Shown: positions 29,901 through 58,025, counted from the first letter of the stretch. The stretch is DNA of 64,000 nt from Candidatus Dojkabacteria bacterium (GCA_016932045.1 JAFGDO010000010.1:1759-65758), one strand, 5' to 3'. The notes: generated from the letters alone by a model not told the origin. Numbers and translations are program-made.

Positions 29901-30719
29901 ACAGTTACTACAGCAGATCCTGCAGTCACACTTACAGCAACAGGAAGTGGTGGTAATGCACCATTAACTTATAGCTGGTCAGGAGCCTGCGCTGGTTCAA
30001 GTAGTACCACTACCGCTCCAAGTACAGTAGGAACACACGTCTGTACTGTAACAGTCACTGACGCTGATGGTGATACTGCTTCTGCAACAGCCACAGTTAC
30101 TGTAAATCCAGCTTCAACACCACCTGCCGGAGGACAACCAGGAACAGGTGCAGGAGGAGGAACTGTTGGCACACAGGTGACAGTTCTTGGTGCAGAAACC
30201 GGAGGTGAAGGAGAGGTAAACGGTGATGCAGAGTCAGACGAACAGGAAGAAGACGGTGAAGTCCTTGGAGAAGAAGAGTGTGAAAATAAATCTAAAGTAA
30301 GAGGCTACATCTACTATGATAACAATGACAATGATCAGAAGGATAAAGGAGAAGAAGGACTTGAAAGTATAGAGGTTAAAATCTATCTAGAAAAGGACGG
30401 AGAAAAAGATGTTGTAACAACAGAGAGAACAGATGAGAATGGATATTGGGAAGCAGAGGTTTGTCCGGGAGAATATAAAGCAGAGATAAATAAAGACGAT
30501 CTTCCCGAAAATGTCGCTCTCTCAAGCGATGAAGTTCTAGGACTTAGTGTAAAAGAAGATGAAGAAATGAATGATATAAACTTCACTGTAAAGAAAACCC
30601 AAGGAATTGACTTCAGCTGGTGGTGGTGTCTAGTACCTCTTGCTATAGTCGCTCTTGTTTATCTTGCCAGTAAATTCTTTAAGCCGAAAGAAGAACAGGA
30701 TGTTAAGGTCGGGATGTAG
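26937..30719 (+). pseudogene. Very large (~1260 aa) secreted or membrane-anchored repeat protein, interrupted by a single in-frame TAA at 27948-27950. The ORF track reports it as 26937..27950 plus 28170..30719.
   Basis: The two ORFs share a frame and the 27951-28169 interval has no stops. Homology to the downstream repeat runs straight across the stop, which is CAA (Gln) in the paralogous repeat at 28878. Other features are an N-terminal signal peptide, three tandem ~310-aa repeats, Ig-like domains, an SdrD-B/CnaB-like domain (RGYIYYDNNDND...TDENGYWEAEV) and a C-terminal TM anchor with a basic tail. Confidence 0.7.
27400..29640 (+). repeat. About 2.3 tandem copies of a ~930-nt intragenic repeat with roughly 85-90% nucleotide identity between copies.
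   Basis: For example, 27715-27945 against 28648-28878 are near-identical (ACAGTAACAGTAGATAACACAGCACCGCCAAC...). The units begin near 27420, 28350 and 29280. Confidence 0.6.
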
Positions 30720-37145: not shown

Positions 37146-37502
37146 ATGCAGAACTACCACAATATAAATACCTGGAAGAAATCACATAAGCTGACAATGG
37201 AACTATACAAAGTAACTTCAAGATTCCCCAAGGAAGAGGTTTATGGAATAACAAATCAGCTTAAAAGATGTTGTTCATCTATTCCTGCAAATATTGCAGA
37301 AGGATGTGGGAGAAGAACGAATAAGGACTTATTGAGATTCTGTTACATTGCACTTGGATCTGCAAATGAAACTGAATACTTTTTACTTCTTTCAAAGGAT
37401 CTTAGTTACTTGGGTACAAAAGAATATAAAGCTTTAAATGAAAAGATAAACGAAATCAGACGCATGCTGATTAATTTTATTAAGAAACTTGATCCGAAGT
37501 AG
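37146..37502 (+). CDS. Four-helix-bundle protein (PF05635 / 23S rRNA IVS protein family; DGR Avd homolog).
   Basis: WKKSHKLTMELYKVTSRFPKEEVYGITNQLKRCCSSIPANIAEGCGRRTNKDLLRFCYIALGSANETEYFLLLSKDL shows the full family signature. The ORF-track start at 37038 overlaps the ATPase gene, so the internal ATG at 37146 is preferred. Confidence 0.75.
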   Translation: MQNYHNINTWKKSHKLTMELYKVTSRFPKEEVYGITNQLKRCCSSIPANIAEGCGRRTNKDLLRFCYIALGSANETEYFLLLSKDLSYLGTKEYKALNEKINEIRRMLINFIKKLDPK

Positions 37503-41407: not shown

Positions 41408-43171
41408 ATGGCACAAAAAAATGAACAATCCAAAAAAGTATCTGAGATAGAAAGGATGCGGCACAGTTTTGCGCATATACTTGCCCATGCTGTTATGCAT
41501 TTATTTCCAGAGGCCAAGCTTGGTATAGGACCGGCTATTGAAAACGGATTTTACTATGATTTTGACCTTCCAAAGCAACTTACTCCAGAAGATCTACCAA
41601 AGATAGAAAAAGAGATGAAAAAACTTATTGCTGAAGAATTACCTTTTCAGCAATTAAATCTCAACAGAGATGAAGCTATGGACATGCTGCTTCAGCAGGG
41701 ACAACTATACAAAACTGAGCTACTGAATGAAATTCCTGATGAGGAAGTCAGTTTCTACAGAACTGGGAATGAATTTATGGATATGTGCAGAGGTCCTCAT
41801 GTTGAGCATACAGGACAGCTGGGGGCATTTAAACTTATGAGTGTAGCCGGAGCTTATTGGAGAGGGGATGAGAAGAGACCACAAATGCAGCGTATTTATG
41901 GTGTAGCATTTAAAACTGAGCAGGAACTGAAAAAACATCTTGAGAACCTAAAAGAATTAAAGAATCGCGACCACAGAAAGCTTGGAAAAGAGCTGGATCT
42001 ATTCTTAATTGATGAAACTGTCGGACAAGGGCTAGTTATGTGGTTACCCAAGGGATCTCAAATAAGAAAAATCATCGAGGACTTTGAGTATAAAGAGAGA
42101 ATTAAATTAGGGTATGAACCTGTTTATACTCCACATATAGGTAGTCTAAAATTATTTAAAGAATCAGGACATTGGCAGCATTACCGTGACTCAATGTACG
42201 CACCAATCGAAATAGATAAGGAAAAATACCTTCTTAAGCCCATGAATTGTCCTTTCCATGCCAAGATTTACTCAAGAAAAATTCGAAGTTATCGTGATCT
42301 TCCAATAAAGTACTGCGAATATGGAACTGTATATAGATATGAGAAGTCTGGAGAACTATCTGGACTGACTCGTGTAAGAGGATTTACTCAAGATGATGCT
42401 CATATCTATTTCCGTGAAGACCAAACGAAAGAGCTTGTCATAGAAACAATCCAAGCAACAATAAGACTGATAACTGCATTCGGCTTTGATAACTATCGTG
42501 TAAGGCTATCTTTAAGAGACCAAAAAGATAAAGAAAAATTCATAGATAAACCAGAAGCTTGGGCAAAAGCAGAAAAAGGACTGAGAGACGCACTTAAAGA
42601 AATGGAAGTAGATTATATAGAGGAAATAGGAGAGGCGGCCTTTTACGGGCCTAAAGTTGATTTTCTTGTGAAAGATGCATTGGGAAGAGAAGAGCAGTGT
42701 GGCACAGTACAACTTGATTTCAATGTCCCTGAAAGATTTAAGTTAACCTATATTGACGAGAATGGAAAGGAACAGCAGCCTGTTATGATTCACTGGGCAC
42801 CGCTCGGTTCATTTGAGCGTTTCTTCTCGCGAATTATAGAGCACTATGGTGGAGCATTTCCTGCTTGGTTATCACCATTACAGGCAAGAATTATCCCGAT
42901 TTCCAAAAAGTTTAACAACTACGCGAAAATAGTAAAGGAGGAACTTGATAAAAGAGATATTCGCTCCGCTATTGATGAGAGGGATGAGACACTGCAAGCT
43001 AAGATACGAGATTCAGAAATGGATAAGATTCCTTATATGTTGGTCATAGGGAAAAAGGAACAAGCAAATAAAGCTGTTGCTGTAAGACCAAGAACTGGAG
43101 CAGACTTGGGAATGATGAAACTCGATGAATTCATTGAACGGATAGAGGAGGAAATCCAAGCAAAAAAATAG
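41408..43171 (+). CDS. thrS: Threonine--tRNA ligase, short form lacking the N-terminal TGS domain.
   Basis: It starts at the second additional domain's HxxxH motif (HSFAHILAHAV). Class II motifs are present (FRTGNEFMDMCRGPHV, YGTVYRYEKSGELSGLTRVRGFTQDDAHIY) along with a C-terminal anticodon-binding domain. Confidence 0.9.
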   Translation: MAQKNEQSKKVSEIERMRHSFAHILAHAVMHLFPEAKLGIGPAIENGFYYDFDLPKQLTPEDLPKIEKEMKKLIAEELPFQQLNLNRDEAMDMLLQQGQLYKTELLNEIPDEEVSFYRTGNEFMDMCRGPHVEHTGQLGAFKLMSVAGAYWRGDEKRPQMQRIYGVAFKTEQELKKHLENLKELKNRDHRKLGKELDLFLIDETVGQGLVMWLPKGSQIRKIIEDFEYKERIKLGYEPVYTPHIGSLKLFKESGHWQHYRDSMYAPIEIDKEKYLLKPMNCPFHAKIYSRKIRSYRDLPIKYCEYGTVYRYEKSGELSGLTRVRGFTQDDAHIYFREDQTKELVIETIQATIRLITAFGFDNYRVRLSLRDQKDKEKFIDKPEAWAKAEKGLRDALKEMEVDYIEEIGEAAFYGPKVDFLVKDALGREEQCGTVQLDFNVPERFKLTYIDENGKEQQPVMIHWAPLGSFERFFSRIIEHYGGAFPAWLSPLQARIIPISKKFNNYAKIVKEELDKRDIRSAIDERDETLQAKIRDSEMDKIPYMLVIGKKEQANKAVAVRPRTGADLGMMKLDEFIERIEEEIQAKK

Positions 43172-43295: not shown

Positions 43296-43856
43296 ATAGC
43301 ATATCCAAAACAGTCGCGTCCTAAGATTCCTTTTTACAGAAGGAATGATTACATTCGAATTTCTCCAATTCGATTAATTGACGAGAAAGGGAATAACCTC
43401 GGAGAGGTAGAAACACCCAAAGCACTAGAAATGGCTCGAGAAAAAGGACTCGATCTTATCGAGGTCGCTCCAAGTGTCAGGCCGCCTGTGTGCAAAATTC
43501 TTTCTTGGTCAAAATTTAAATATGACTTATCCAAGAAACAACGCTCATCCTCTAAGGGAAAAGCAAAAGAGATGAAGGAAATGTGGTTTTCTCCATATAT
43601 TGGAGAGGGAGATATCAATCATAAACTAAAAAGGGTAGAAGAATTTTTATCCAAGAAGCATCCCGTCAAGCTTACAATTCGTGTCAGGGGCAGAGTACAC
43701 AACGAAGTTGTGACTGCACAACTCGAAAAGATTCTTGGATTACTCGAAGGGAAATTTGAGACAGAAGAAAAACCAAGAAGAGAGGGGAGAAATCTTTCAA
43801 TAATCATATTTCCACCCAAGAAAATTTCAAAAACTGACGATAAAGAAAAGAAATAG
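43296..43856 (+). CDS. infC: Translation initiation factor IF-3 with a probable non-AUG (ATA/ATT) start. The ORF track gives only the C-terminal 141 aa from an internal ATG at 43431.
   Basis: The frame is open upstream of 43431 back to a TAA at 43275. It encodes an IF3 N-domain (..RRNDYIRISPIRLIDEKGNNLGEVETPKALEMAREKGLDLIEVAPSVRPPVCKI..) with no ATG/GTG/TTG, and the candidate starts are ATA at 43296 or ATT at 43326. Confidence 0.8.
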   Translation: MAYPKQSRPKIPFYRRNDYIRISPIRLIDEKGNNLGEVETPKALEMAREKGLDLIEVAPSVRPPVCKILSWSKFKYDLSKKQRSSSKGKAKEMKEMWFSPYIGEGDINHKLKRVEEFLSKKHPVKLTIRVRGRVHNEVVTAQLEKILGLLEGKFETEEKPRREGRNLSIIIFPPKKISKTDDKEKK

Positions 43857-43933: not shown

Positions 43934-44239
43934 ATGATAAAGCGTAATGAACCATTTGTATGCATAAATTGCAAGAAAAAAGTAAAACCTGCCCTATCCG
44001 GCAAGTGCAGAAATCACTGTAATTTTTGCCTATTTTCACAGCATATTGATATAGTCCCGGGAGATAGGAGACATCCTTGCAAAGGCATAATGAAGCCAAT
44101 AAGGATAGAAAAGCGGAAAAAAGGGTTATATATTTTACATAAATGCGAGAAATGCGGGCTTAAAAAGTGGAATAAAATTCTAGAAGATGATAGAATCAGT
44201 AGTCAGTATAAAGTAAACAACACGAAGAAAGCGACCTAA
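43934..44239 (+). CDS. Cys-rich zinc-ribbon protein (RNHCP-like motif CRNHCNFC) inserted between infC and rpmI.
   Basis: A 101-aa ORF with CxxC...CxxxC...C...CxxC spacing and a basic C-terminal tail. Confidence 0.5.
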   Translation: MIKRNEPFVCINCKKKVKPALSGKCRNHCNFCLFSQHIDIVPGDRRHPCKGIMKPIRIEKRKKGLYILHKCEKCGLKKWNKILEDDRISSQYKVNNTKKAT

Positions 44240-44339: not shown

Positions 44340-44540
44340 ATGAAAATACATCAAGGTATAAAGAAGAGATTTAAAAAAAGCAGGCCTAAAATGGGCCAGT
44401 TTAAACTTAAATATCAATCTAAGGGTAGAGGCAGTAAACACCTCAAAACTAAACAAACAAGACAGAGAAGAAGACGCATTCGACAGACAAAAAGTGCAAT
44501 CATACACAAAAACATAAGAAGAGCTACCAGCTCTTTATAA
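44340..44540 (+). CDS. rpmI: 50S ribosomal protein L35.
   Basis: A 66-aa highly basic protein with a KKRFKK motif, positioned between infC and rplT. Confidence 0.75.
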   Translation: MKIHQGIKKRFKKSRPKMGQFKLKYQSKGRGSKHLKTKQTRQRRRRIRQTKSAIIHKNIRRATSSL

Positions 44541-44569: not shown

Positions 44570-44914
44570 ATGAGAGTCAAACGAGGAACAATCAAAAGAA
44601 GAAAGCATAAGAAGATTCTAAAAGCTGCAAAGGGCTATAGACTATCTTACAGTAAACTTTACCGAAGAGCTAAGGAAGCCTTGCTGCACGCCGGACAATA
44701 CTCCTATGCTCATCGTAAGAAAAGACAAAACGAATTTAGAAAGCTCTGGATACAAAGAATCAATGGTGCTCTTAGCCAGTTTGATCTTAAATATAGTAGA
44801 TTTATTAAACTACTAAAAGACTCAAAGATAGATCTAAACCGCAAAATGCTTGCAGATCTTGCAGTAAATGATCCCCAAGCCTTCGAAAATGTTGTTGAGA
44901 AGGTGAAGAAGTAA
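44570..44914 (+). CDS. rplT: 50S ribosomal protein L20.
   Basis: [24 protein letters not shown] matches the L20 N-terminus. The protein is 114 aa. Confidence 0.9.
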
Positions 44915-44989
44915 CCTCCACTCTTCTGCCTATTATCTTATAACCTTTCGCATTAGTATATCCTGAATTTTGACAATGCATTACATACC

Positions 44990-47900
44990 TTATGGTACAA
45001 ATCTTCCACCATTATCCCTTACCCTAATAAAGTAACCTCCAACCTCAAATATCTTGAAATCATTTCCATAAGGTATATCATTTTCCTTGATGAAGTTTTC
45101 ATATCTTCCATTATCCCATCTAGTTATTGTATCAGCCTTAATCCCGTCACCGTTTATCGCATCTAGTAAACTATCTGATGTGTATTCTGTCTCTGGTGAA
45201 ACAATACTAACAAGATTCCAGCCTCTCTCAAATTCTATTGGCAAACTTTCTTCAATTTCAGCTCCCTTAAACATTACCTTGCCAGCATTATAGACTTTAA
45301 TAAAATACCCTTGCCCAGGAATAATACTAAAATTATTTGAAAAACTTATTCCATTTCTTTGAGAATAAACATACCACCTCCCTCCAAAATAAGTTGCTAC
45401 ATGAGTAGCATATACTCCTTGATCATTGATATTTTCAAGTAAAGACTTTGCATCTCCAACATTACTCCCTTCCTCTATCTTAGTATAATTGGGAATGGAT
45501 ATTATGTTCCAACCCACATCTAAATTTATAAAGACTCCATTTGATATTTTTACCTTTTCAAGACTTGATATCTTTACTTCAGTCTCCATAGGATCCATCT
45601 CCCCATTATTATTCCAATCCCAATATATTATTGAATTTCCACTCAATTTAACTATATCGCTAGTTATCTCCATCTTTCTTTCCTCCGCAACCTCCGCCTC
45701 GACTTTTCTGATAAGGCCTTTATTTGTATCATCAACATATTTATACCCATCACTACTAGTGCAACCTAAAGCATCTTTAAGCATTTCCATATTTGTATCT
45801 CCTGGATCGGGATTATGATATTCTCCTCCTGGTCCCGTTAGCGTTCTCTCGCTGTGTCCGATGACGGAACATTTATCATGGATAAAACCTGAGACTTCCC
45901 ATGTTTCTATCAGATCAACCATAGAATCAATCTGTTCTTGCGAAAAATCACTACCTGACTGTCCAACATTTTCTATAGCAATACCACGAATATTTCCTTC
46001 TTGTTCACCCGCATGAAGAGCAACCTGTTCAATATTAGTAACCTGAGTTATAACACCATTTCGATCAATGACGACATGAGCATAAGGAATAAGATTCCCA
46101 TCTGGATCAATAACATTATCTCTCCAATATGTAGCAATATTTAGTCCAGTGACATCGTCTCCGGTTTGATGAATCCACACTGCATCCTTATTTGATGTAT
46201 TATTTGAAGAATTATAATTATATGTACTTAATAAATCCTGATCATAATTATTTGACACATGTTCTCCTACCAATGAGGTTCTATCTCCACTAGAAATATC
46301 ATAATATGTGATTTCTAAATCTATAGGTGCTAAACCCACGTTTGTTATCGGAGGACAGTCATCTCCTGATGCAATAGGAAAACAAGGATCATCTGGATCT
46401 GCGTCGTTTATATCATTTATGCCATCTCCATCGGAATCAAGTCTAGGATTAACACAAGAACCTGATAAACACTCTAATCCATACCTACAATTATTAAAAT
46501 AAACACCCGAAGCCTGCCTCCATTCGCAGGGTTCACCATGACTTTTATCGCATACACCAAATAATGCTATACAGTCAGGACGACAATCGGGCTGATTATG
46601 AACTGGTACACAATCATTATCGTATTGAACAATCTCTACCAAACTATGGTACGAACCAGCCAAGAAAGCTTCTTTACTACAATTAAACCAATGCTGTCCA
46701 TTTTGAACAATATTATTGCTATCACTTAAAGATCCATTACAAGCACTTCTATACTCATGAGGATACGTATCAACTATATGGACTGTACCATTCAAACATA
46801 TATAAATATCTCCACTCCCTAACTCTATAAAACTTCCCTCAGGATGCCCTTCAATACCTAACTCATTGCAGGTTATATCACGTTTCGTATCCAAAATAGA
46901 AACTTCCCAAAACGCTTCGTAATTATTATTTATTTGTCTAATGCTGCATAACGCTAAATAGGTTACATCGTTTTCTTCAAACTTCCTGCTACCATGAACA
47001 CTTATACCTTCTGGAACATATCTTTCAAGCAAATCGTGGTACGAACTAACAGACTCCCAGTGATCCCTACCTACATCGCATGACATATTTTCGTTTACAC
47101 GATCTTCAACATCACTTTGTTCCTGACCTACTGCGCACTTATCATTTCTACCTGTAGGCATTTTTGTACATCCATATGAACCACATTCCTGATTTAAAGT
47201 ACAATCATCTGATTTCGTACAATAATACAAATTATTACCATAACAATATAAACCTACCCCTCCCCAATCATCACTACTTATTGTAACAACTCCGTCACCT
47301 TTTGTAGTTGGTCCTCCGACATCCGCAATATTATTACAAATACCATATTGACCTGGCCCAAAATCGCTAATTTCCCTACACCCAGCATCTCCACAATCAG
47401 TATAAATTTTACAATTTGACTTTGTCAGACATGCATATACATCATTATCGTAGCAGTACAATCCCTCCCCCTTCCATTTATCGTCAGGAATTTTTTGATC
47501 AGATGTAACAGATGGTGTTCCACCACTAAAACATCTATCATTTTTTCCTACCGGCATCTTCTCACACCCAGATTCATTACATTCTAGGTTCTTTGAGCAA
47601 GTAGTTTTATTTGAGCAATAATATAAGTCATTGTCATAACAGTATAATCCGGCTCCTCCCCAATCTTCATCACTAATGTATTGTGTTGTGCCTGGAGTAG
47701 CTGGAGTAGAAGGAGGAACCGTTGTTGTAGTACCAACGCATTTTGAATTCCAACAAGGCTGTGGTTTACAGATTGAATCACAGCTTTTAGGATTTCCCCA
47801 GTCCCAATCTCCTAAATCAGGGTTGCAATAATAGGCTATACAAGTATCATTAGTACAATGCCAACCACTTAATCCACCGCAATCAGCCGCATAAATCTGA

Positions 47901-48766
47901 TTTATTAAACTACTATTACTTTTTTCTAATTCGATAGGACTATATGGTTCTGTATATATATCACCCAAAGGTTGTAATTTTTCCGAAGGTATGTTTCTAA
48001 CTTGCGTCCATTCGTTTGAAGTAATAATTTCAAGATCAACAATGAAATCGCTATTTATATCAAAAAACTCTTCAAGATTTTCTTGTCTAAGTAAACCTAT
48101 ATCTATACTCCAGCCGGACTCGGTATTTATCAAAGTACTAGCAACCTGAGATTGTTTTTCATGAATGTTGCTATCATCTGTTTCTATTGACTTAAGACTC
48201 AGCAAAACAATCCCTTCATCCAAGGATTCTCTCTTAGAATTAAATACCCTGCCATATACTGGATATGGACTTTTTAATTCATCTGCGATATCAATTGTTT
48301 CAAGTGGTGGATACTCATAATCTACACTCCTCATACCTGTACTTACCTTATAGTAATATTTACTATTAGGATTTAACTCTCTTAGTATTACATAATGAAC
48401 ATAATATTCACGCCACTGATTTATTTTATATACTCCATATTCAACCTCTTCAATATCTCTTTCATCATAAGCTCTATCTTTGCCAATGTATCTAAAAATA
48501 GGGAACCATTTATCCTCTTTTGCATAAATAACACTACCACAAGTTGGACTATCGCTAATCCATGTAACTGTCGCACTCGTACCTGTAATATTTGTAACTC
48601 TAACATCTCTTATCTCTGATGTCCTTTCGCTTAAAAAATTTACACCAATCACAATTATTGTTAAAAGGAAAATAACAATCGTAGAAACTACCAACAGCAG
48701 TCCCATCTTAGAGGATCTAAAAAAAACTAAAAACCTATTCAAATAATTATCTTTAGAATTTGCCAT
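44990..48766 (-). CDS. Giant (1258 aa) membrane-anchored extracellular protein combining an N-terminal FN3-like (purple acid phosphatase N-like) domain, three Cys-rich ~55-aa repeats, a Ca-binding-like D-rich motif, an Amidase_2 (PGRP-type N-acetylmuramoyl-L-alanine amidase) domain and a C-terminal repeat region.
   Basis: An N-terminal TM helix. The FN3-like stretch is VRVTNITGTSATVTWIS...LNPNSKYYYKV. The Cys-rich repeats are DWGGAGLYCYDNDLYYC...C..EC...GC (x3), and the D-rich motif is DSDGDGINDINDADPDDP. Amidase_2 motifs are YAHVVIDRNGVITQ...ALHAGE...NIRGIAIENVG...VIGHSE. Confidence 0.8.
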   Translation of the reverse strand: MANSKDNYLNRFLVFFRSSKMGLLLVVSTIVIFLLTIIVIGVNFLSERTSEIRDVRVTNITGTSATVTWISDSPTCGSVIYAKEDKWFPIFRYIGKDRAYDERDIEEVEYGVYKINQWREYYVHYVILRELNPNSKYYYKVSTGMRSVDYEYPPLETIDIADELKSPYPVYGRVFNSKRESLDEGIVLLSLKSIETDDSNIHEKQSQVASTLINTESGWSIDIGLLRQENLEEFFDINSDFIVDLEIITSNEWTQVRNIPSEKLQPLGDIYTEPYSPIELEKSNSSLINQIYAADCGGLSGWHCTNDTCIAYYCNPDLGDWDWGNPKSCDSICKPQPCWNSKCVGTTTTVPPSTPATPGTTQYISDEDWGGAGLYCYDNDLYYCSNKTTCSKNLECNESGCEKMPVGKNDRCFSGGTPSVTSDQKIPDDKWKGEGLYCYDNDVYACLTKSNCKIYTDCGDAGCREISDFGPGQYGICNNIADVGGPTTKGDGVVTISSDDWGGVGLYCYGNNLYYCTKSDDCTLNQECGSYGCTKMPTGRNDKCAVGQEQSDVEDRVNENMSCDVGRDHWESVSSYHDLLERYVPEGISVHGSRKFEENDVTYLALCSIRQINNNYEAFWEVSILDTKRDITCNELGIEGHPEGSFIELGSGDIYICLNGTVHIVDTYPHEYRSACNGSLSDSNNIVQNGQHWFNCSKEAFLAGSYHSLVEIVQYDNDCVPVHNQPDCRPDCIALFGVCDKSHGEPCEWRQASGVYFNNCRYGLECLSGSCVNPRLDSDGDGINDINDADPDDPCFPIASGDDCPPITNVGLAPIDLEITYYDISSGDRTSLVGEHVSNNYDQDLLSTYNYNSSNNTSNKDAVWIHQTGDDVTGLNIATYWRDNVIDPDGNLIPYAHVVIDRNGVITQVTNIEQVALHAGEQEGNIRGIAIENVGQSGSDFSQEQIDSMVDLIETWEVSGFIHDKCSVIGHSERTLTGPGGEYHNPDPGDTNMEMLKDALGCTSSDGYKYVDDTNKGLIRKVEAEVAEERKMEITSDIVKLSGNSIIYWDWNNNGEMDPMETEVKISSLEKVKISNGVFINLDVGWNIISIPNYTKIEEGSNVGDAKSLLENINDQGVYATHVATYFGGRWYVYSQRNGISFSNNFSIIPGQGYFIKVYNAGKVMFKGAEIEESLPIEFERGWNLVSIVSPETEYTSDSLLDAINGDGIKADTITRWDNGRYENFIKENDIPYGNDFKIFEVGGYFIRVRDNGGRFVP

Positions 48767-48848
48767 AGAGGATAAATAAAAGATTATGTATCTTAAATAA
48801 TAAAAATATTATGATATAGAAACTACATTGTGTCAAAGGTAGGAATTA

Positions 48849-50114
48849 TTACCAATCTTCCACATCTTTTACCACTTTTTCCTCCCACCATTTCTTACAA
48901 TTACTGTTTATAAAAACTATAATCCACCCAGCTCCAGCAGTAAATACTATAAGACCGAACATTGTTCTAAAAAGCCAGTAATCTTCAAATCCAGTACTTG
49001 GCAAATCAGTTCCTGTATTTTGAGTTGTTTGTTGTTCCGCTTCAGGTGCAGGATCCTGCGAAGTAGTAGCAGTGACTTCAGATTCAATTGTAAAATTACT
49101 GCCAGCAGTTGAAGCAAAAATCTCGTCATTATAGCCTGTTTTCTCAGCCCGAATATTTAAAATTTTATCTTCAAGTTCATCTAATGCCACAGCGCTTACA
49201 TACCCCGTATAACTATCCGGACCGTATAATTTCACCTGCAATCCATTTTCTGACGAGTAGGGAAAATAAGAAACAAGATCTTGTTCCCTCGCTATACCAA
49301 TTACAAGTTCTACTCCGCCTGTAGCGTTATATATTCCACTAACTATCGACGACTCCTCTCCATGTATGTCAATCTGTTTTGCAAGTACTAAATAATCTAC
49401 ATCAGAAAAACCTGCAACCTTATTTGAAGTTATAGAAACCGAGGCAGGAGTTGAGGGTGAAGAGGTAAGTTGTGCACTTGCATAGCTATATGGCTTCCCA
49501 TTATCATTAAATTCCTCATCATTTGAGACAATTGTGAAATAATACGTTAAGCCTTCTATATCTAGATCTTCATCTGAATTAATAATGGTCACATGATGGG
49601 TAAAGCGTTTTTCTAGATTATTAGTGTTTTCTTCTCTGTCGTCATACTCAGTACGCACAAGTTCTGTTTCATCTGTACCAAATTGAATATAACCTGTTTG
49701 TGCTGTATCTGTAACCCAAGCAATACTCCATATCCTAAAATCCTCATTTGTGATTTGAACTTTTTGAGGAGTATTTTCTTTGATTGTTTCAGTTGCTTGC
49801 TCCTCTGGTTTTTCCTCTACACTAGGCATCTCTTCTTCTACTTCACCCTCAGGTTCCGCAGCATACACATCATTAGCTCCAAGTCTTACTACAGGAAGAG
49901 ATGGAACACCTTGACTGCTTAAGCATACTAACCCCTCGGGACAATTTGACACCGAGCCATCGGACTCCCATAAACTTTCTAATTCTTCATCGGTTCGAGT
50001 AGAAGGACCCGTAGTTTTATCAGTACCGCTTTCTCTTGTAAAGAAAAAGAAAATACCTATACCAATAGATATTGCAATAAACACCAAAATTATTAGCACT
50101 ATTTTATCCTTCAT
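48849..50114 (-). CDS. Surface protein with an N-terminal signal/anchor, an FN3-like domain and a C-terminal LPSTG sortase-type sorting signal.
   Basis: The C-terminus reads DLPSTGFEDYWLFRTMFGLIVFTAGAGWIIVFINSNCKKWWEEK, which is LPxTG followed by a hydrophobic segment and a basic tail. The N-terminal module is paralogous to the two flanking genes. Confidence 0.6.
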   Translation of the reverse strand: MKDKIVLIILVFIAISIGIGIFFFFTRESGTDKTTGPSTRTDEELESLWESDGSVSNCPEGLVCLSSQGVPSLPVVRLGANDVYAAEPEGEVEEEMPSVEEKPEEQATETIKENTPQKVQITNEDFRIWSIAWVTDTAQTGYIQFGTDETELVRTEYDDREENTNNLEKRFTHHVTIINSDEDLDIEGLTYYFTIVSNDEEFNDNGKPYSYASAQLTSSPSTPASVSITSNKVAGFSDVDYLVLAKQIDIHGEESSIVSGIYNATGGVELVIGIAREQDLVSYFPYSSENGLQVKLYGPDSYTGYVSAVALDELEDKILNIRAEKTGYNDEIFASTAGSNFTIESEVTATTSQDPAPEAEQQTTQNTGTDLPSTGFEDYWLFRTMFGLIVFTAGAGWIIVFINSNCKKWWEEKVVKDVEDW

Positions 50115-50123
50115 TACTTAATT

Positions 50124-50858
50124 CTATTCATTTATTTGTATGATTTGAGTCGTAACTCTTCCTTCCCCCCTGTCACCTCCCTCCGCAACAATATATAGGG
50201 TAGCACTATTATATTCAGTAAAGTAATCGGAAAGGTCGGCTAACCTTAAATTCGAAAGATCAAATGTATACCGCCTATCTAGAGTCAAAGCCGATAATTC
50301 ATTTGATACCAAACCATCTTTTTCAGCATATAAGTAAACTATCAGATCCTCATTTGAACCTGATGAGTCTTCAACTTCTCCCTTAACTGGTTGTGGCATT
50401 TGCACAGTCTCCAATGTAGAACCAGTTCTAAATTGGTAAAGCTGATTTTGAGACATCTTGTATTCTTTCCCGCCAACGGCAATGAGATAATAATAGCTTG
50501 AATCAGGGTTTAATCCGACAAGATCAACATAGTGAAGGGTATACTGTCCATTTGCCTCTCCTATATCTCTAATATCAAATGCAATCTGACTAACTTCTGG
50601 TTGATTCCCAAACTTAACAAACCCGATTGTTTCAACCGTAGGAGTGACCCATGAAATCGTAGCCGATGTATCTGTAATATTTGTAACTACAACATTCTGG
50701 GGGACCTCTGTTGGAAGAGCTTTTGTGCGCATCTCGGTTATATACATAACACCGCTGACAGAAAGCGGGATCAAGATTACCGCGATAAAAAGGATAATGA
50801 TCAATGTCCTAAATTTTCGTTGCTGTTTTTTTTGTGGAAAGGACTCATCTTCTGACAT
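50124..50858 (-). CDS. Membrane-anchored protein with an FN3-like (PAP-N-like) extracellular domain. It is the third paralog of the cluster.
   Basis: An N-terminal TM helix, then VVVTNITDTSATISWVT...LNPDSSYYYLI, matching the same domain in the two genes at higher coordinates on this strand. It lies 9 nt from the preceding gene, which suggests an operon. Confidence 0.6.
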   Translation of the reverse strand: MSEDESFPQKKQQRKFRTLIIILFIAVILIPLSVSGVMYITEMRTKALPTEVPQNVVVTNITDTSATISWVTPTVETIGFVKFGNQPEVSQIAFDIRDIGEANGQYTLHYVDLVGLNPDSSYYYLIAVGGKEYKMSQNQLYQFRTGSTLETVQMPQPVKGEVEDSSGSNEDLIVYLYAEKDGLVSNELSALTLDRRYTFDLSNLRLADLSDYFTEYNSATLYIVAEGGDRGEGRVTTQIIQINE

Positions 50859-50944
50859 TGATTTTTTTCATATCTAACCATATAATTAAAGCGTTTTATT
50901 ATAATTCTATAAAAGAAACTAACACTATAGTACAATATTGTGAT

Positions 50945-51961
50945 ATGACAATCAAACAACTAGAAAAAATCACAAAAAAAGCATCCGATGAACTATTACA
51001 AGCCAAGGATCAAAGAGATCTTGAAAAGCTCAGGATAAAGTACCTCGGACGCAAGAGTGAGTTAACCAGGATTCTTCGTTCAATAAAGAATTTACCACAA
51101 AAAAAGAGACCAATAATGGGAGCAAAGGCAAATGAAATAAGAAAAAGAATTGAAGACTTATACAATGATGCCACAGAAAAGATGAAAATTAGCAAGGCAC
51201 TAGATAAAGATGAAGAAATCGATGTAACAATACCAGTAAAAGCTCAAGCTATTGGGCACATCCACCCAATAACGCAAATGCTTTGGAGAGCTGAAGAAAT
51301 ATTTCAAAAAATGGGATTTGAAATATTTGAGCCCTTTGAAATCGATGACGATTACCATAACTTCGAAAGTGTAAATATCCCACCTGGTCACCCTGCAAGA
51401 GACTTATGGGACACATTCTGGACTGAGGACGGGTTTATCCCCATAACTCACACATCTTCTATGCAAGTGCGAATTCTTAAATCAAGAAAACCTCCAATAA
51501 GAGCTGTTGTACCGGGAAAAGTATTCAGAAACGAGAGAACCGACCCAAGGCACGAACACACTCTCTCACAAATAGAAGGCATATATGTGGACAAAGGCAT
51601 TTCTCTCTCTGACATGATCGGAACTTTAAAGACTTTTTTTGATGCTTTTTATGGAAAAGATGTACAAGTGAAAGTTGTACCCGACTACTTTCCTTTTGTC
51701 GAACCTGGAAATGGCATGAATTTAAGCTGTGTTATATGTGATATGAAAGGTTGTAGAGTTTGCAAACATACTGGATGGTTAGAAATTTTGGGCTGCGGGA
51801 TGATCCATCCAAATGTTTTACGAGAGGGAGGAATTGACCCTGATGTGTACTCAGGATTTGCATGGGGGTTTGGCCTGGACAGATTGGTAATGCTAAAGTA
51901 CGGCATAGAAGACATACGGCATTTCCGAAATGGCGATCTAAGATTCATAAGACAGTTTTAA
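50945..51961 (+). CDS. pheS: Phenylalanine--tRNA ligase alpha subunit.
   Basis: A PheS N-terminal coiled coil (MTIKQLEKITKKASDELLQAKDQRDLEKLRIKYLGRKSELT) and class II core motifs (FRNERTDPRHEHTLSQIEG..., GFAWGFGLDRL). The ORF-track start at 50834 overlaps the divergent gene, so the internal ATG at 50945 is preferred. Confidence 0.9.
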   Translation: MTIKQLEKITKKASDELLQAKDQRDLEKLRIKYLGRKSELTRILRSIKNLPQKKRPIMGAKANEIRKRIEDLYNDATEKMKISKALDKDEEIDVTIPVKAQAIGHIHPITQMLWRAEEIFQKMGFEIFEPFEIDDDYHNFESVNIPPGHPARDLWDTFWTEDGFIPITHTSSMQVRILKSRKPPIRAVVPGKVFRNERTDPRHEHTLSQIEGIYVDKGISLSDMIGTLKTFFDAFYGKDVQVKVVPDYFPFVEPGNGMNLSCVICDMKGCRVCKHTGWLEILGCGMIHPNVLREGGIDPDVYSGFAWGFGLDRLVMLKYGIEDIRHFRNGDLRFIRQF

Positions 51962-52012: not shown

Positions 52013-54421
52013 ATGCTACTATCTAAAAAATGGCTTGAACAATACTTGCCCAAGGGGATAAAAATTAAAGCCTCTAAGCTTCGCAACCGAATCACTTATT
52101 CGCTTGCAGAAGTTGAGAATATATATAATGTTGGAGAAGAATTAACGAATATAGTTGTAGGAGAAATTAAAAAGATCAAGCCTCATCCTAAATCAGATAA
52201 TCTCCATGTCGCAATAGTCGATATTGGGAATTCTCGAAAAAAAACTATCGTCTGCGCAGCAAAGAACATATTTGAAGGGGCAAAAGTTCCTGTTGCTCTC
52301 CCAGGAGGCTCCGTACTTAATCCCGAGCAGGACTTAGGTTCGCAAGACTCCTTTGAGATAAAAGAAATAGAAATAAAAAAAATTAAATCTTCTGGTATGT
52401 TATGCAGTCAGAAGGAATTGGGAATTAGTGATGACCACAAAGGTATATGGATACTTCCGGATGAGCTCAATGTAGGGGAAGATTTTTGCGGAATGCTAAA
52501 AGATACAATTCTTGAAATCGAAAATAAATCTCTTACACATAGATCAGACTGTTTCTCCCACCTAGGAATTGCAAGAGAGCTCTCGGCGATACTCAAGATC
52601 CCTTTTGATTATGAGGAAAGCCAGGAAATTTTAGTACCAACACAAACATTACCACTTGTTGTAAAAGTCGAAGATCCCAAATTATGTCAAAGATATACAG
52701 CAATTGCTATTCATGGCGTAAAGATCCAGCCATCACCCCTCTGGCTTCAACTAAAGCTTCTTGCAGTAGGCGTTAAACCTATTAACAATGTCGTAGATGC
52801 AACAAATTTCGTAATGCTAGATATGGGACAACCTATACATGCTTTCGATTACAATAAACTTGATGCGCCAAGGGTAATCGTCAGGAAAGCTAAAAAGGGT
52901 GAGGAAATACGTACTTTGGACGGAGATATACGGAGGTTAGGTAGCGATCAACTTCTTATAACTGATCCAAAGGGCCCGATTGCTATTGCCGGTATCATGG
53001 GAGGACTTGATACAGAAGTCGATAATGACACTCAAGATATTATCATTGAGTCTGCAAATTTTGAGATGTACAATATCCGCCGAAGTACAAACGAACTTGG
53101 CCTTAGAACTGAAGCAAGTACACGCTTTGAAAAAGGACAGGACCCACACACGACTCTGCCTGCTTTGAAACGAGTTGCCGAACTAATAACAGAAACAGCT
53201 GGAGGTGAAATAGCCTCAGAGGTTATAGATATATATAAAGAGCCGGGAGAAGAGAGACAGCTAGAATTTGATACCGATGACGTTCCAAGATTTTTGGGTA
53301 TAGAAGTATCCAAAGAAGAAGTTATTCATATTTTTGAATCTCTTCATCTTGCTGTAAATACACCTGAAGTAAGTTCGACAAAATTGTCGGTTACTATACC
53401 AACGTTCAGAAGAGATTTAAATATAAAAGAGGACTTGCTTGAGGAGGTTGCCAGAATTTTCGGATATGATAAATTTCACCCCACCTTACCAGTAAGAGAT
53501 CTTAAATCCGTCCCTAAAAACTTTCAAAGGGAATTCGAAAAAATGCTTATGTTTACAATGTCTTCCCTGGGATTTGATGAAATATATACATACTCATTTA
53601 TTGGAGAACAGCACTACAGGAAAACTTTACTTGATATAGATAAGTGTTTGAAACTTAAAAATCCTCTTTCCCCAGAGCTTGCCTATATGAGGAACAGCTT
53701 GGTACCAAGCATCCTTGAAAAAGTGAAATTAAACCTAGCTAATTTTGATGAGATTTTAATTTATGAGATGTCTCGTATTTTTTTCAAAGAGAAAAATAAA
53801 GAAGGTCTCCCTAACCAGCCATTAAATATCATAGGTCTGGTCTCAAAACACACAGATAATAAGGAGTTATATTTTACTCTAAAAGAAAAGGTTATCGCTC
53901 TACTTGGACAAGCCGGAATTGCTACCTATGCTTTTGAGAAAGTTGATAGTATTCCCTACTTTCATCCCGGACAACAAGCTCTCATAACCACAAACAAAGT
54001 AGTACTTGGCAACATCGGCACATTACATCCACAGGTAAAGGATAACTGGAATATTGATCCAAACACATCTCTTTTTATTTTGGATATCGAAAAACTTTTT
54101 GAACTTCAAAATAAGGAGAAGGTTTACAAAAGATTTTCCAAATATCCTTATGTGAAAAGAGATCTCAGTTTCTGGGTCAAAAAAGATACCCAGACCGGAC
54201 ACTTGGTCAAAGAATTAGAAAAGGGAAATTTTAGCTATGTAAAAGATATAGAAGTAAAAGATATATATGAACCCAAAACAAAACAGGACGAGAAGAGCAT
54301 TACAATTCAGGTAATTTTGCAATCAAAGAGAATAACACTTTCTGAAGAAGAAATTAATATTGATATCTCAGTCCTTATAGAAACAATTAAAAAATTTGGT
54401 GGCACGTTGAGGAAAAAGTGA
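52013..54421 (+). CDS. pheT: Phenylalanine--tRNA ligase beta subunit.
   Basis: An 802-aa protein with the B3/B4, B5 and C-terminal FDX-ACB domain layout, immediately downstream of pheS. Confidence 0.9.
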   Translation: MLLSKKWLEQYLPKGIKIKASKLRNRITYSLAEVENIYNVGEELTNIVVGEIKKIKPHPKSDNLHVAIVDIGNSRKKTIVCAAKNIFEGAKVPVALPGGSVLNPEQDLGSQDSFEIKEIEIKKIKSSGMLCSQKELGISDDHKGIWILPDELNVGEDFCGMLKDTILEIENKSLTHRSDCFSHLGIARELSAILKIPFDYEESQEILVPTQTLPLVVKVEDPKLCQRYTAIAIHGVKIQPSPLWLQLKLLAVGVKPINNVVDATNFVMLDMGQPIHAFDYNKLDAPRVIVRKAKKGEEIRTLDGDIRRLGSDQLLITDPKGPIAIAGIMGGLDTEVDNDTQDIIIESANFEMYNIRRSTNELGLRTEASTRFEKGQDPHTTLPALKRVAELITETAGGEIASEVIDIYKEPGEERQLEFDTDDVPRFLGIEVSKEEVIHIFESLHLAVNTPEVSSTKLSVTIPTFRRDLNIKEDLLEEVARIFGYDKFHPTLPVRDLKSVPKNFQREFEKMLMFTMSSLGFDEIYTYSFIGEQHYRKTLLDIDKCLKLKNPLSPELAYMRNSLVPSILEKVKLNLANFDEILIYEMSRIFFKEKNKEGLPNQPLNIIGLVSKHTDNKELYFTLKEKVIALLGQAGIATYAFEKVDSIPYFHPGQQALITTNKVVLGNIGTLHPQVKDNWNIDPNTSLFILDIEKLFELQNKEKVYKRFSKYPYVKRDLSFWVKKDTQTGHLVKELEKGNFSYVKDIEVKDIYEPKTKQDEKSITIQVILQSKRITLSEEEINIDISVLIETIKKFGGTLRKK

Positions 54422-55046: not shown

Positions 55047-58025
55047 TTACGGACTAACAACATTAATAGTAATGTTTTGCGAATAGATAGTACTGCCATT
55101 TGATAAAGTTAGTGCGGCCTGAAGGGTATAACTTCCGACTTGAGTAGGCGCCCATGTACAGGTATATGCCCCTCCACCGGAATCGCTCATGGTCTCACTT
55201 GGCAGTGACCCACCTGGTCCAGTAATCAAAAGTCTTGCTGATGTTACACTGGTCCCGCCGTAACGCTGAGCAGTTACTGTGATTGCAGCCATTTCTAGGC
55301 TTACACCATTTTGTGGATCAGTAATCGACACGACATCTCCTACAATTATCCTTACCGAAGCACTTCCGGTACGTCCAGCACCATCATAGGCTTTCACAAT
55401 CAGATCATGCCAGCCATCCGATACTGTAGCAGGTATAGTTACAGATGCCACAAATGGATTATTTGTGGCCTGAGTAATATAGGTTCCATCAACATATACC
55501 TCAATTTTTGAAATGCCTGATGACGTAGCATATGCTCTTGCTTCAACATCGACTTTCCCTCCCTTTGATACTGCAGTATTTGCTGCAGGTTTAGAAATAG
55601 TTACCCACGGGTTATCCTCTCCAGTTGGGTTTCTATTGATATCGCAATATTCTGTAGGAGGAGCACCTTGGCTGAAATATGAATCCCATGCAGCCTGCCA
55701 TGTATCCTTTGGGGCTTTAATATATCTATAAACCTTTTCGATCACTAAGCCTAGCTGTTCATCAATGTCGCGAGCAAGTCTATCCTGCTGGTCGCTACAT
55801 ACACGGAATAACTGTGTTGCAGAATCATCCTGCGGTGGAAGTTTGTCTTGAATGAATAGATCGCTTATTGCCTCACAGTGCTCAGTTGCCAAAAGCCCAC
55901 TATCACGGCATACAGAGGCTGACACAACTCCTCCTGGGCGTGTAAACCTCGATGGAGTAAACCTTGGAAGTATTTTATTTGTATAATCAATCCATATTGG
56001 TCTTGCAGCTGTATATCCATATGCTGATTTATTCATACGGGAGTTGTCGTTGTTCCCGGCCCAGACCCCAGTAACAACTTCTGGAGTCCAACCCATATAC
56101 CATACATTTGTATTATTATCATTTGTTCCAGTTTTACCAGCCTGATCCCATCCTGCTGGTGGCGTATAGTGGTAGTTCCGCGCGGTGTCATTCACAAGAT
56201 AAACGGCTCGTTCATCGGCTACCCTTACCCCCTGTCTTACCTCATCTGTATTAAAGTCATAGATTACATTGCCTTCCTTGTCCTCAATTTTTAATATTGG
56301 CGATATCGGATGATAAATTCCACCTGTTGCCATAACCGCATAAGCGTTTGTATGTTCAACTAACTTTACATCCCCTGCACCTAAGGCAATTGCGTCTCCA
56401 TAATTTTCGGGATTTGTAAATGTCGAGTAACCAAACTTTTCAAGTGTATTTATAAAATTAGTCACTCCGACTATTTCAATTGCTTCAACAGCAGGAATAT
56501 TGAGTGAATCGCGGAGAGCTTGCCTTAAGGTCAAAAGACCATGGTATCTGCCGTCATTATTCTTTGGCCTATAATTGCCATCAAAAGGAACATCCATATC
56601 CAGAAAAGGATATGCCGGATACAGTTGTCCTGTTTCAAAGCCAGCATAATAAACTACCGGCTTAAGGGAAGAACCCGGTTGTCTCAAAGCAACTGCTACA
56701 TTCACATTTGGCTCAAATTTACAATCAGCTCCAAGTGTACATCCTTCTGGCGAAGCAGTTCCAAAATAGTCAGCCGAACCAACCATCGCTAAAACTTGAC
56801 CAGTTTTTGGATCAATTGTAACCAAAGCTGCATTATTTCCTCCATGAGCCTTTACAACATTCTCAACACCATTCAGTATAGATTCTTCCGCTATATTCTG
56901 CATATCAAGGTCTAGACTTGTAGTGATACGAAGTCCACCTCTTTCAACCTCTGATAAAGTAAACGGCCTACCATTATTGTAGTTGCCCTTTGTTAACTCG
57001 TCCTCAACATAAAATACAAAGTGAGGAGCTTCTATATTTATGTCGCTGGTCTTATATGCTATTTTCTGCTCTCTTGCCTGCTGTATTTTTTCATCTGTAA
57101 TTAGATCTTCCTCGCCCTCCCAGCCATTATACTTTCTTGCATAAGCATTTATTTTGTCTTTTTTACTTTGCAGCTGATCGAGAACATAATTTTGTCTTTG
57201 TATAGCTAGTTCACGTGCCACCTTCACGTCAGATGCAAAAAGAGGAGAATAGAGCCCTGGTGCCTGAGGCAGTCCTGCAAGAAGAGCCGCCTCCCCGAGC
57301 GACAGTTCAGTAACATCTTTACCAAAATAAATTCTAGCAGCAGTTTTCACGCCATAAGTATTTCCGCCAAAGCCGATTTCATTTAGATACAACTGCAAAA
57401 CATCCTTTTTATCATACTTCTGCTCAATTCTTAAACTTAATATTATTTCTTTGATTTTTCTCTCATAAGTTCTCTCCGTTGTAAGAACCGTGTTTTTAAT
57501 CATCTGTTGGGTAATAGTTGATCCTCCGCGAGGACTGCCAACTTTGAAAACCTCGTACATTCCAGCTTTCACAACTCCTCCAAGATCCACCCCCTTGTGA
57601 GTATAAAAGTCAATGTCCTCAGCAGCAAGAAAAGCCCACTGAGCTTCTAAAGGAACCTCATCAATCTGAACTATATCCCTATTTTCATCCCCATGTATCT
57701 TGTAAAGCTCTTTCCCATTCCTATCGTAGACATAACTTGTCAGATCCTGACCTCTTTCAAAAGGTTCATCGGGATTTGGAAGTTCTGAAGAATACTTAGC
57801 AATAACTGAAAGAGTAAAAATAGTGGTAATAAATATGACAACAAAAACAATTCCGGCAAAAATACCCAGAACTTTCTTTACTCTCCCCTTTAAACTATCT
57901 TTTCCAAGCACAGATTTACTCCAGCCCTTCTTTCCTCTTTTCGATTTCAATTTCTTCAAACGCTTCTGGAAGCGGGACTTGTACGTTCTTCTTCTATTGT
58001 AGTTTATCGCTGTCTTATAAGCCAT
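55047..58025 (-). CDS. Class A penicillin-binding protein (PBP1A-type), copy 2, with a C-terminal Ig-like (Big) extension.
   Basis: GGSTITQQMIKN, PGSSLKP (SxxK) and KTGTNDN (KTG) motifs, and a basic N-terminal tail plus TM anchor as in copy 1. About 250 extra C-terminal residues carry Ig-like repeats. Confidence 0.9.
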   Translation of the reverse strand: MAYKTAINYNRRRTYKSRFQKRLKKLKSKRGKKGWSKSVLGKDSLKGRVKKVLGIFAGIVFVVIFITTIFTLSVIAKYSSELPNPDEPFERGQDLTSYVYDRNGKELYKIHGDENRDIVQIDEVPLEAQWAFLAAEDIDFYTHKGVDLGGVVKAGMYEVFKVGSPRGGSTITQQMIKNTVLTTERTYERKIKEIILSLRIEQKYDKKDVLQLYLNEIGFGGNTYGVKTAARIYFGKDVTELSLGEAALLAGLPQAPGLYSPLFASDVKVARELAIQRQNYVLDQLQSKKDKINAYARKYNGWEGEEDLITDEKIQQAREQKIAYKTSDINIEAPHFVFYVEDELTKGNYNNGRPFTLSEVERGGLRITTSLDLDMQNIAEESILNGVENVVKAHGGNNAALVTIDPKTGQVLAMVGSADYFGTASPEGCTLGADCKFEPNVNVAVALRQPGSSLKPVVYYAGFETGQLYPAYPFLDMDVPFDGNYRPKNNDGRYHGLLTLRQALRDSLNIPAVEAIEIVGVTNFINTLEKFGYSTFTNPENYGDAIALGAGDVKLVEHTNAYAVMATGGIYHPISPILKIEDKEGNVIYDFNTDEVRQGVRVADERAVYLVNDTARNYHYTPPAGWDQAGKTGTNDNNTNVWYMGWTPEVVTGVWAGNNDNSRMNKSAYGYTAARPIWIDYTNKILPRFTPSRFTRPGGVVSASVCRDSGLLATEHCEAISDLFIQDKLPPQDDSATQLFRVCSDQQDRLARDIDEQLGLVIEKVYRYIKAPKDTWQAAWDSYFSQGAPPTEYCDINRNPTGEDNPWVTISKPAANTAVSKGGKVDVEARAYATSSGISKIEVYVDGTYITQATNNPFVASVTIPATVSDGWHDLIVKAYDGAGRTGSASVRIIVGDVVSITDPQNGVSLEMAAITVTAQRYGGTSVTSARLLITGPGGSLPSETMSDSGGGAYTCTWAPTQVGSYTLQAALTLSNGSTIYSQNITINVVSP

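Follow-up and report, generated by a model that had tools for sequence, protein, structure and literature searches.

How does a gene cluster whose order is conserved across phyla come to hold a block of genes on the opposite strand, and what might those genes encode? The question is posed by a 64,000-nucleotide stretch of DNA from Candidatus Dojkabacteria bacterium (GCA_016932045.1 JAFGDO010000010.1:1759-65758), here called the window, with a guanine-cytosine (GC) content of 36.6%. The ORF (open reading frame) list and Pfam searches show that the plus-strand genes thrS, infC, an ORF with an RNHCP domain, rpmI and rplT are parted from pheS and pheT by three minus-strand genes, which we term A, B and C. 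A first-pass annotation of the window had described the order thrS-infC-rpmI-rplT-pheS-pheT as broken by three minus-strand genes, and ORFs and Pfam bear out its coordinates and strands; of its upstream order thrS, infC, rpmI and rplT are present, but the RNHCP ORF between infC and rpmI had been overlooked.

The block is bordered on the left by rplT (44570-44914, plus strand; Ribosomal_L20, E=1.3e-39) and on the right by pheS (50945-51961, plus strand, 338 amino acids; tRNA-synt_2d, E=5.2e-84). Between them lie A (44990-48766, minus strand, 1258 amino acids), defined by its ORF and Pfam domains, B (48849-50114, minus strand, 421 amino acids), defined by its ORF, the alignment of its orthologs and its relatives, and C (50124-50858, minus strand, 244 amino acids), defined by its ORF and Pfam. 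The cluster genes keep the order and the common strand of the classical thrS-infC-rpmI-rplT-pheS-pheT cluster of E. coli and B. subtilis; unlike the latter, the block-bearing sub-clade has rplT and pheS separated by 2-13 kb of genes on the opposite strand, and in the window an RNHCP ORF lies between infC and rpmI. We consider it likely that the block is a lineage-specific cell-envelope cluster of variable copy number, which entered the rplT-pheS junction in the ancestor of a Dojkabacteria sub-clade and has been retained since.

The block occupies the same junction in related genomes

To compare the junction between genomes, loci around pheS were gathered from one genome for each GTDB species, pheS being an anchor without bias toward the block, and the cluster and block genes were then placed in them by tblastn; one further locus pair (L086/L087) was found separately, through an ortholog of A. 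Besides the window, at least 12 related Dojkabacteria loci (L003-L008, L010, L014, L016, L019 and L086/L087), with pheS 59-74% identical, have the block at the rplT-pheS junction. In contrast, rplT is directly followed by pheS in about 30 loci of Dojkabacteria/WS6, WWE3, CPR3 and other Patescibacteria and in all loci of Marinimicrobia/Fidelibacterota, with a gap of 9-440 bp in nearly all block-less loci. The conserved cluster is therefore truly split, as the first-pass annotation had proposed, since rplT directly precedes pheS in most Dojkabacteria, in other bacteria within the Candidate Phyla Radiation (CPR; WWE3 and CPR3) and in Marinimicrobia/Fidelibacterota. Because the block is shared at the same junction by genomes whose pheS is so divergent, it must be old, and we conclude that it is an old lineage-specific insertion.

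A neighbour-joining (NJ) tree of pheS and pheT groups the block-bearers together, as a clade of the window and L003-L008 alongside L014 and a group of L010, L016 and L019, and the node that joins them also gives rise to a block-less Dojkabacteria clade. One gain, possibly followed by one loss, would account for this distribution. Spacers of about 880 bp separate rplT from pheS in one Dojkabacteria locus (L035) and in a locus that groups with those of Marinimicrobia/Fidelibacterota in the tree (L056); no match to the FN3 module was found in either spacer.

A, B and C share an N-terminal module

C is the shortest of the three proteins and represents the minimal module, composed according to Pfam and AlphaFold2 of a transmembrane (TM) helix (residues 12-47), an FN3 domain (54-144) and a second domain (about 155-240). 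The FN3 domain is predicted with confidence (predicted local distance difference test, pLDDT, 70-90), and Foldseek searches with the confident part of C return the N-domains of purple acid phytases/phosphatases and FN3 domains as top matches. C has seven orthologs at 49-54% identity. The corresponding segments of A are an N-terminal TM anchor (residues 18-48; 48623-48715, minus strand), recognized in a hydropathy scan and aligning with the TM helix of C, an FN3/purple-acid-phosphatase-N-like domain (51-145; 48332-48616, minus strand) and a second beta-rich domain (about 150-290; 47897-48319, minus strand), which aligns with residues 146-213 of C and weakly with residues 249-289 of B.

A and C are 27% identical over 231 residues (E=1e-16), covering the TM helix, the FN3 domain and the domain that follows. 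B and C are 27% identical over 100 residues (BLASTP, E=3e-7), an alignment that covers FN3 and delimits the FN3-like domain of B to residues about 112-205 (49500-49781, minus strand), while A and B show a weak similarity in the second domain only (E=0.002). Judged by these alignments, the paralogy of A, B and C is beyond chance. The Pfam family Pur_ac_phosph_N (PF16656, cut-off 30 bits) is matched by A with 33.0 bits and by C with 38.5 bits; B has no Pfam match of its own, and the family is matched by 78 of 86 family relatives of B. The FN3 assignment that the first-pass annotation had left to profile and structure searches is thus upheld by Pfam in A and C and by AlphaFold2 and Foldseek for C. 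Its proposed module of TM anchor, FN3 and second domain is shared by all three proteins, except that FN3 does not directly follow the TM helix in B, where about 85 residues stand in between, among them an acidic linker and a CPEGxxC motif that is conserved. The divergent C-termini that it described, namely Amidase_2 in the 1258-residue A, LPSTG in B and a short form in C, were all recovered.

The second domain is less well defined. In the AlphaFold2 model of C it is poorly predicted (pLDDT<50), which weighs against this part of the module, and its fold could consequently not be identified. CarboxypepD_reg (PF13620) has no match in the second domain of A, B or C; weak matches occur in relatives (the A-like protein of L014, residues 222-265, E=0.0065; L019, E=0.0089), and 11 of 86 members of the wider family match it, with a best E of 7.9e-29 and positions within the protein that were not reported.

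An exhaustive phmmer search with B collected the wider family, with 475 representatives at E<=1e-3. Of the 150 best, 128 have an N-terminal and 97 a C-terminal TM helix, and 60 carry an LPxTG-like motif ahead of the latter. The module of TM helix, FN3 and beta domain defines a large family. In the arrangement that we propose, C would be held in the membrane by its N-terminal TM helix, with FN3 and the second beta domain displayed outside the cell.

Gene content varies around a constant C-B pair

Across the relatives the block comprises 1 to 5 genes, in line with the local expansion suggested in the first-pass annotation. The L003 block holds C and B only. In L004 the pair is accompanied by a 334-residue protein with an A-type C-terminal domain, in L008 by two A-type genes (1120 and 1244 amino acids) and in L086/L087, where the block reaches about 13 kb, by three (1081, 1278 and 1258 amino acids, the second with Amidase_2). 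The L014 block consists of one A-type gene and a fused gene of 631 amino acids, and the blocks of L010, L016 and L019 of one fused gene each (605-618 amino acids), whose product has two FN3 modules and a TM helix at the N-terminus and resembles C in its first half and B in its second. A-type paralogs number 0 to 3 per genome.

Across this range the C-B pair appears as the constant core of the block, represented in the deeper relatives by a single gene of about 610 amino acids. The stop codon of C and the start of B are 9 nt apart. This spacing, together with the occurrence of C and B as a single gene in deeper relatives, suggests that C-B acts as one unit and fits an operon, which had been proposed on first reading of the locus.

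C-B units are also found away from rplT and pheS, in other metagenomic genomes. A C-like and a B-like gene lie side by side in L092 (7265-9209), and a fused 620-residue form in L089 (8001-9863) adjoins a divergently transcribed thioredoxin-like gene and a gene for an SH3_3 protein; the existence of the C-B unit is therefore not tied to the rplT-pheS site.

Gene A combines a Cys-rich stalk, an amidase domain and a conserved C-terminal domain

In the A-type paralogs the first ~300 and the last 200-250 residues are conserved while the Cys-rich middle is variable. In A this region spans residues 296-804 (46355-47881, minus strand), as delimited by Cys positions, motifs and a repeat at the DNA level (D1). 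It contains 42 of the 45 Cys of the protein, with three six-Cys repeats of about 55 residues at 366-415, 428-480 and 498-547 and an Asp-rich stretch, DSDGDGINDINDADPDD (DSDGDG...), from residue 777. Among the paralogs P0010-P0013 the region differs in both length and sequence. We propose that A-type paralogs re-use the N-terminal anchor module and carry a variable stalk of 44-66 cysteines, presumably disulfide-bonded, as well as the conserved two-repeat C-terminal domain. Disulfide machinery of the MdbA/VKOR type has been reported in CPR (PMC6744442), and extracellular cysteines would be in keeping with it.

The stalk is followed by a predicted zinc N-acetylmuramoyl-L-alanine amidase domain (residues 861-990; 45797-46186, minus strand), identified by Pfam (Amidase_2, PF01510; residues 861-973, E=6.3e-14, 52.9 bits compared to a gathering threshold of 26) and by the motifs WIHQTG, AHVVIDRNG, GIAIEN, IGHSE and NPDPG. 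P0010, encoded in L086, is a full-length ortholog of A with the same architecture at 36% identity, and it keeps the His of WIHQTG and of IGHSE, the Asp of NPDPG and the Glu of GIAIEN. These residues, putatively the zinc ligands and the catalytic Glu by analogy with T7 lysozyme and AmpD and not by a structure-based alignment, would stand at the motif positions expected of Amidase_2 enzymes (AmpD, T7 lysozyme, peptidoglycan recognition proteins and phage endolysins), which A also resembles in scoring above the Pfam threshold. Compared to T7 lysozyme, a counterpart of K128 is not evident in A, by motif reading only. A single-sequence search of the PDB with the amidase segment returned no amidase at E up to 10. 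A two-sequence profile gave sub-threshold PDB matches only, with AmpD as the best (E=0.039), followed by other and phage amidases and T7 lysozyme (E=0.16-0.65) with unrelated proteins intermixed, and the Glu-bearing stretch aligns with AmpD; by these weak profile matches AmpD and phage amidases are the closest solved relatives of the domain. What sets A apart from known Amidase_2 proteins is the setting, as the domain starts only at residue 861 of a 1258-residue membrane-anchored protein, between a 42-Cys stalk and an unmatched C-terminal domain.

The latter (residues 1076-1258; 44993-45541, minus strand), the conserved C-terminal domain of A-type paralogs, consists of two tandem alpha/beta repeats of about 90 residues with the signature GWN[IL][IV]S...GYFI[KR]V. 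It is well predicted, and neither the solved structures of the PDB nor the predicted viral ones of BFVD gave a match; a sequence search of the PDB gave chance matches only, and a word-indexed homolog search with the domain returned a single protein.

If active, the Amidase_2 domain of A and of one L086 paralog would cut the MurNAc-L-Ala (N-acetylmuramoyl-L-alanine) bond in peptidoglycan at the cell surface, its target being either the own wall or that of a host. Amidase_2 enzymes are classic autolysins, and A could accordingly be a housekeeping autolysin that splits the cell's own septal peptidoglycan, in which case the block would serve envelope maintenance and have no role in host contact. 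Such a function agrees with the N-terminal TM helix that tethers A to the membrane of its own cell and with the abundance of wall-synthesis genes in the window (glmS-like, murB and two genes for class A penicillin-binding proteins, PBPs). However, at this locus an Amidase_2-bearing paralog occurs only in the window and in L086/L087 and not in L003, L004, L008, L014 or the lineages with a fused gene; that only two block-bearing lineages have it is unlike a core division function, although amidases could be encoded elsewhere. In addition, with its long Cys-rich stalk and an extra domain of the binding type, the enzyme would be positioned a long way from the cell's own membrane. We therefore regard the autolysin as a serious alternative that is nevertheless the less probable one.

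B carries a candidate sortase signal

The C-terminus of B resembles a sorting signal (residues 371-421; 48852-49004, minus strand), with LPSTG at 371-375, a TM helix at 384-404 and the tail NSNCKKWWEEKVVKDVEDW. The motif [LI]PxTG is kept in all seven aligned B orthologs (as LPSTG, LPYTG, LPQTG, IPSTG or LPRTG), 7-10 residues ahead of the C-terminal TM helix and with invariant P, T and G, and the fused forms end in LPETA, LPDTA, LPLTS or LPATG followed by a TM helix and a basic tail. In ending with [LI]PxTG, about 20-30 hydrophobic residues and then Lys/Arg, B and its orthologs are like the LPXTG proteins of Gram-positive bacteria (TIGR01167/PF00746), and an ectodomain built of immunoglobulin (Ig)/FN3-type beta-sandwich domains is shared with many adhesins. 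On TIGR01167 (cut-off 15.9) an ortholog that is 52% identical to B (P0015) passes with 18.5 bits, and the B protein of L008 reaches 15.2 bits; on PF00746 (Gram_pos_anchor) P0015 reaches 19.6 bits compared to a threshold of 20. According to Méheust et al. (PMC6744442), over half of CPR genomes contain a sortase family, which in Microgenomates is near-ubiquitous. B is thus probably a sortase substrate anchored by the [LI]PxTG motif, TM helix and tail. It would display the same two domains as C, and a sortase would most likely cleave at this signal and link B to peptidoglycan.

Several observations weigh against this assignment. B itself scores 14.6 bits on TIGR01167, just below the cut-off. Its tail after the TM helix has 17 residues, is net acidic and shows a conserved sequence (PWNYK.LWEKKVV, then acidic residues), which is unusual for a sortase signal that is to be discarded, and the N-terminal hydrophobic segment (residues 1-28, about 25 residues) is long and may be an uncleaved anchor instead of a signal peptide. 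No sortase was found in the 64-kb window by a scan for the TLxTC motif and by Pfam, including 30 further ORFs, and the same motif scan of 93 collected sequences (1.53 Mb) gave no relevant match. Unlike Gram-positive LPXTG proteins, B combines a score just under the cut-off with a long, conserved and net acidic tail (containing KK) and a TM-anchor-like N-terminus; the motif is LPxTA or LPxTS in deeper relatives, and no sortase gene was found in the sequence scanned.

Within the family the tail WE[KR]K[VI][VIL] occurs in 14 of the 150 best B relatives and always together with PxT[GAS] (14/14). In another 34 of the 150 an [LIVM]Px[SA]G-type motif is followed by a TM helix and a short basic tail, and none of these has WE[KR]K[VI][VIL] (0/34). 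The B family (P0015-P0164) thus displays two types of C-terminal signal, which are never found together.

These features could also be explained if B were no sortase substrate at all but a two-TM protein (N-in, C-in) with its ectodomain looped outside, the PxTG motif and the WE[KR]K[VI][VIL] tail serving a cytoplasmic partner or a dedicated sorting enzyme. The conservation of the tail in all seven orthologs and its constant association with PxT[GAS] in the family would be expected from such a protein, as would the sub-threshold TIGR01167 score of B, the window lacking a sortase match and the anchor-like N-terminal segment. On the other hand, the invariant P, T and G are placed 7-10 residues before the TM helix exactly as in sortase signals, P0015 passes TIGR01167, and sortases are common in this part of CPR (PMC6744442). 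In view of the motif conservation, the P0015 score and the frequency of sortases in CPR we favour sortase anchoring of B; the two-TM topology is a real alternative, though on balance an unlikely one.

Composition of the block and mode of entry

The first-pass annotation had further suggested that the block was recently inserted. This part of its reading fails, as relatives carry the same genes at the same place with ordinary composition. The GC content of the block is 0.32-0.39 compared to 0.366 for the window. Neither direct nor inverted repeats were found flanking the block, no tRNA was found at the rplT-pheS junction, and no transposase or integrase was found among the Pfam domains of A-C or in the gene tables of related blocks. 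By composition, repeats, integrase/transposase genes, a tRNA target and patchy presence among close relatives, the block does not qualify as a genomic island.

A foreign island acquired recently in this genome by horizontal transfer or a mobile element would explain why a conserved cluster is interrupted by genes on the opposite strand and why block gene content differs among genomes, yet we consider it highly improbable, given that at least 12 loci with 59-74% pheS identity carry orthologs at this junction and group in the tree, and given the unremarkable GC content and the searches for repeats, mobility domains and a junction tRNA described above.

The ancestral entry of the block into the junction, as we prefer it, has points against it as well. 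The NJ tree is compatible with one gain or with one gain and one loss without resolving them, and a C-B-like pair occurs in another genomic context (L092). Owing to such pairs elsewhere the event may have been a relocation within the genome and not an acquisition.

FN3-containing surface proteins of CPR are known from the Pam-type pilus, which is assembled by donor-strand exchange: PamR is described as RbmA-like, with tandem FN3 domains and a TM helix at the C-terminus, and Pam homologues are reported mainly in Saccharimonadia and Microgenomatia, with Dojkabacteria never mentioned in the text of the paper (bioRxiv 10.64898/2026.03.03.709456). The proposal that A-C are parts of such a pilus, with B or C as a PamR-like tandem-FN3 tether, draws on this likeness (CPR surface protein, FN3 domains, C-terminal TM helix) and on weak matches of 2 of 86 distant B-family relatives to the PamR hidden Markov model (HMM; NF058578, E=0.011), but we rejected it as having next to no likelihood, as A, B, C and two orthologs have no PamR match even at E<=1, the block between rplT and pheS contains no pam genes, be it for PapD/FimC-like chaperones or for pilins, and the anchoring signal is a different one.

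Transcription of the split cluster

The opposite-strand genes part rplT from pheS, so that pheS-pheT needs a promoter of its own. C and pheS diverge from an 86-bp intergenic region (50859-50944) with promoter-like sites in both directions. The minus-strand site (50951-50924) has 10 of 12 matches to the consensus and a -35 hexamer that extends 7 bp into pheS, and the plus-strand site (50858-50886), likewise with 10 of 12 matches, is a candidate for pheS-pheT. The best site in the region, TTGACA-17-CATAAT (48808-48836, minus strand; 11/12 matches), is located in the B-A spacer upstream of A. As a scan of the region gave 28 promoter-like sites compared to 27.5±5.7 expected, and 6 terminator-like sites compared to 3.0±1.9, these counts are not clearly above chance, and the sites cited, being consensus matches, are positional hints only.

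Implications for the cell envelope

The cell-envelope role of A, B and C is well supported. Their extracellular topology and the sortase processing of B would follow from the predicted anchors and signals, and a role in host interaction would be a plausible inference for a CPR organism. The component types are all known, i.e. an LPXTG-type surface protein, FN3 modules and an Amidase_2 hydrolase, and nothing is overturned. Particular to the locus are the old and stable insertion of opposite-strand genes into a cluster that is conserved across phyla, a single anchor module that recurs in a varying set of paralogs, the extended conserved tail on the sorting signal and a C-terminal domain without PDB or BFVD match. 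A more far-reaching proposal is that PxT[GA], TM helix and acidic WE[KR]K[VI][VIL] tail form the signal of a dedicated CPR-specific sorting enzyme, a sortase subclass or other, and that A-type proteins are surface effectors of an episymbiont, built of the shared anchor module, a disulfide-rich stalk, in some cases a peptidoglycan amidase, and a C-terminal domain that binds the host wall, with a copy number that tracks host range; we regard this as speculative and rather improbable.

Dojkabacteria are tiny and uncultured, and for the question of cell contact the locus offers candidate envelope proteins in a compact set whose synteny is fixed. As copy numbers differ from species to species, these genes are reasonable first targets for proteomics, labelling in cryo-electron tomography and heterologous assays. 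The locus also demonstrates that an opposite-strand insert can persist stably for long evolutionary times within a gene cluster whose conservation extends across phyla; with pheS-pheT transcribed separately here, the insert matters for synteny-based annotation and operon prediction.

Flanking genes and other genes of the window

Among the flanking genes thrS (41408-43171, plus strand) and pheT (52013-54421, plus strand) were assigned by Pfam. infC (43296-43856, plus strand) contains IF3_N and IF3_C. The ORF starting at ATG 43431 is without the first 30 positions of IF3_N, which is complete (E=1.3e-24) only from the in-frame ATA at 43296; this suggests a non-canonical start codon of infC at 43296. 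Such a start codon is classical for infC. The RNHCP-domain ORF between infC and rpmI (43934-44239, plus strand; Pfam, E=5.9e-26) represents a second lineage-specific insert in the thrS...pheT cluster and is found at this place, among the compared loci, only in the source contig of the window (L001/L002), in L003 and in L086/L087. rpmI (44340-44540, plus strand) is predicted to encode a divergent L35, an assignment that leans on its position, its conservation in relatives and a weak L35 match (13.1 bits compared to a cut-off of 28.9).

Ig-like domains (Big_3_3, Big_7, Big_13, SdrD_B) occur in two further predicted surface proteins, which are encoded at 26937-27950 and 28170-30719, both on the plus strand, and an LPxTG-type C-terminus was seen in neither. 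A 101-residue ORF at about 37197-37502 (plus strand; 2628-2933 in L002), located between an ABC ATPase gene and a gene for an FtsX-like permease, matches 23S_rRNA_IVP and weakly bAvd, a four-helix bundle like the accessory protein of diversity-generating retroelements; no reverse transcriptase was seen in the precomputed Pfam list for its neighbours.

Besides glmS-like and murB genes for wall synthesis, the window contains two genes for class A PBPs (Transgly and Transpeptidase domains), at 14849-17173 (plus strand) and 55047-58025 (minus strand). The latter, which also has a Big_7 domain, is convergent on pheT and keeps this position in nearly all CPR loci examined, so that thrS...pheT and the convergent PBP gene form a wider conserved neighbourhood.

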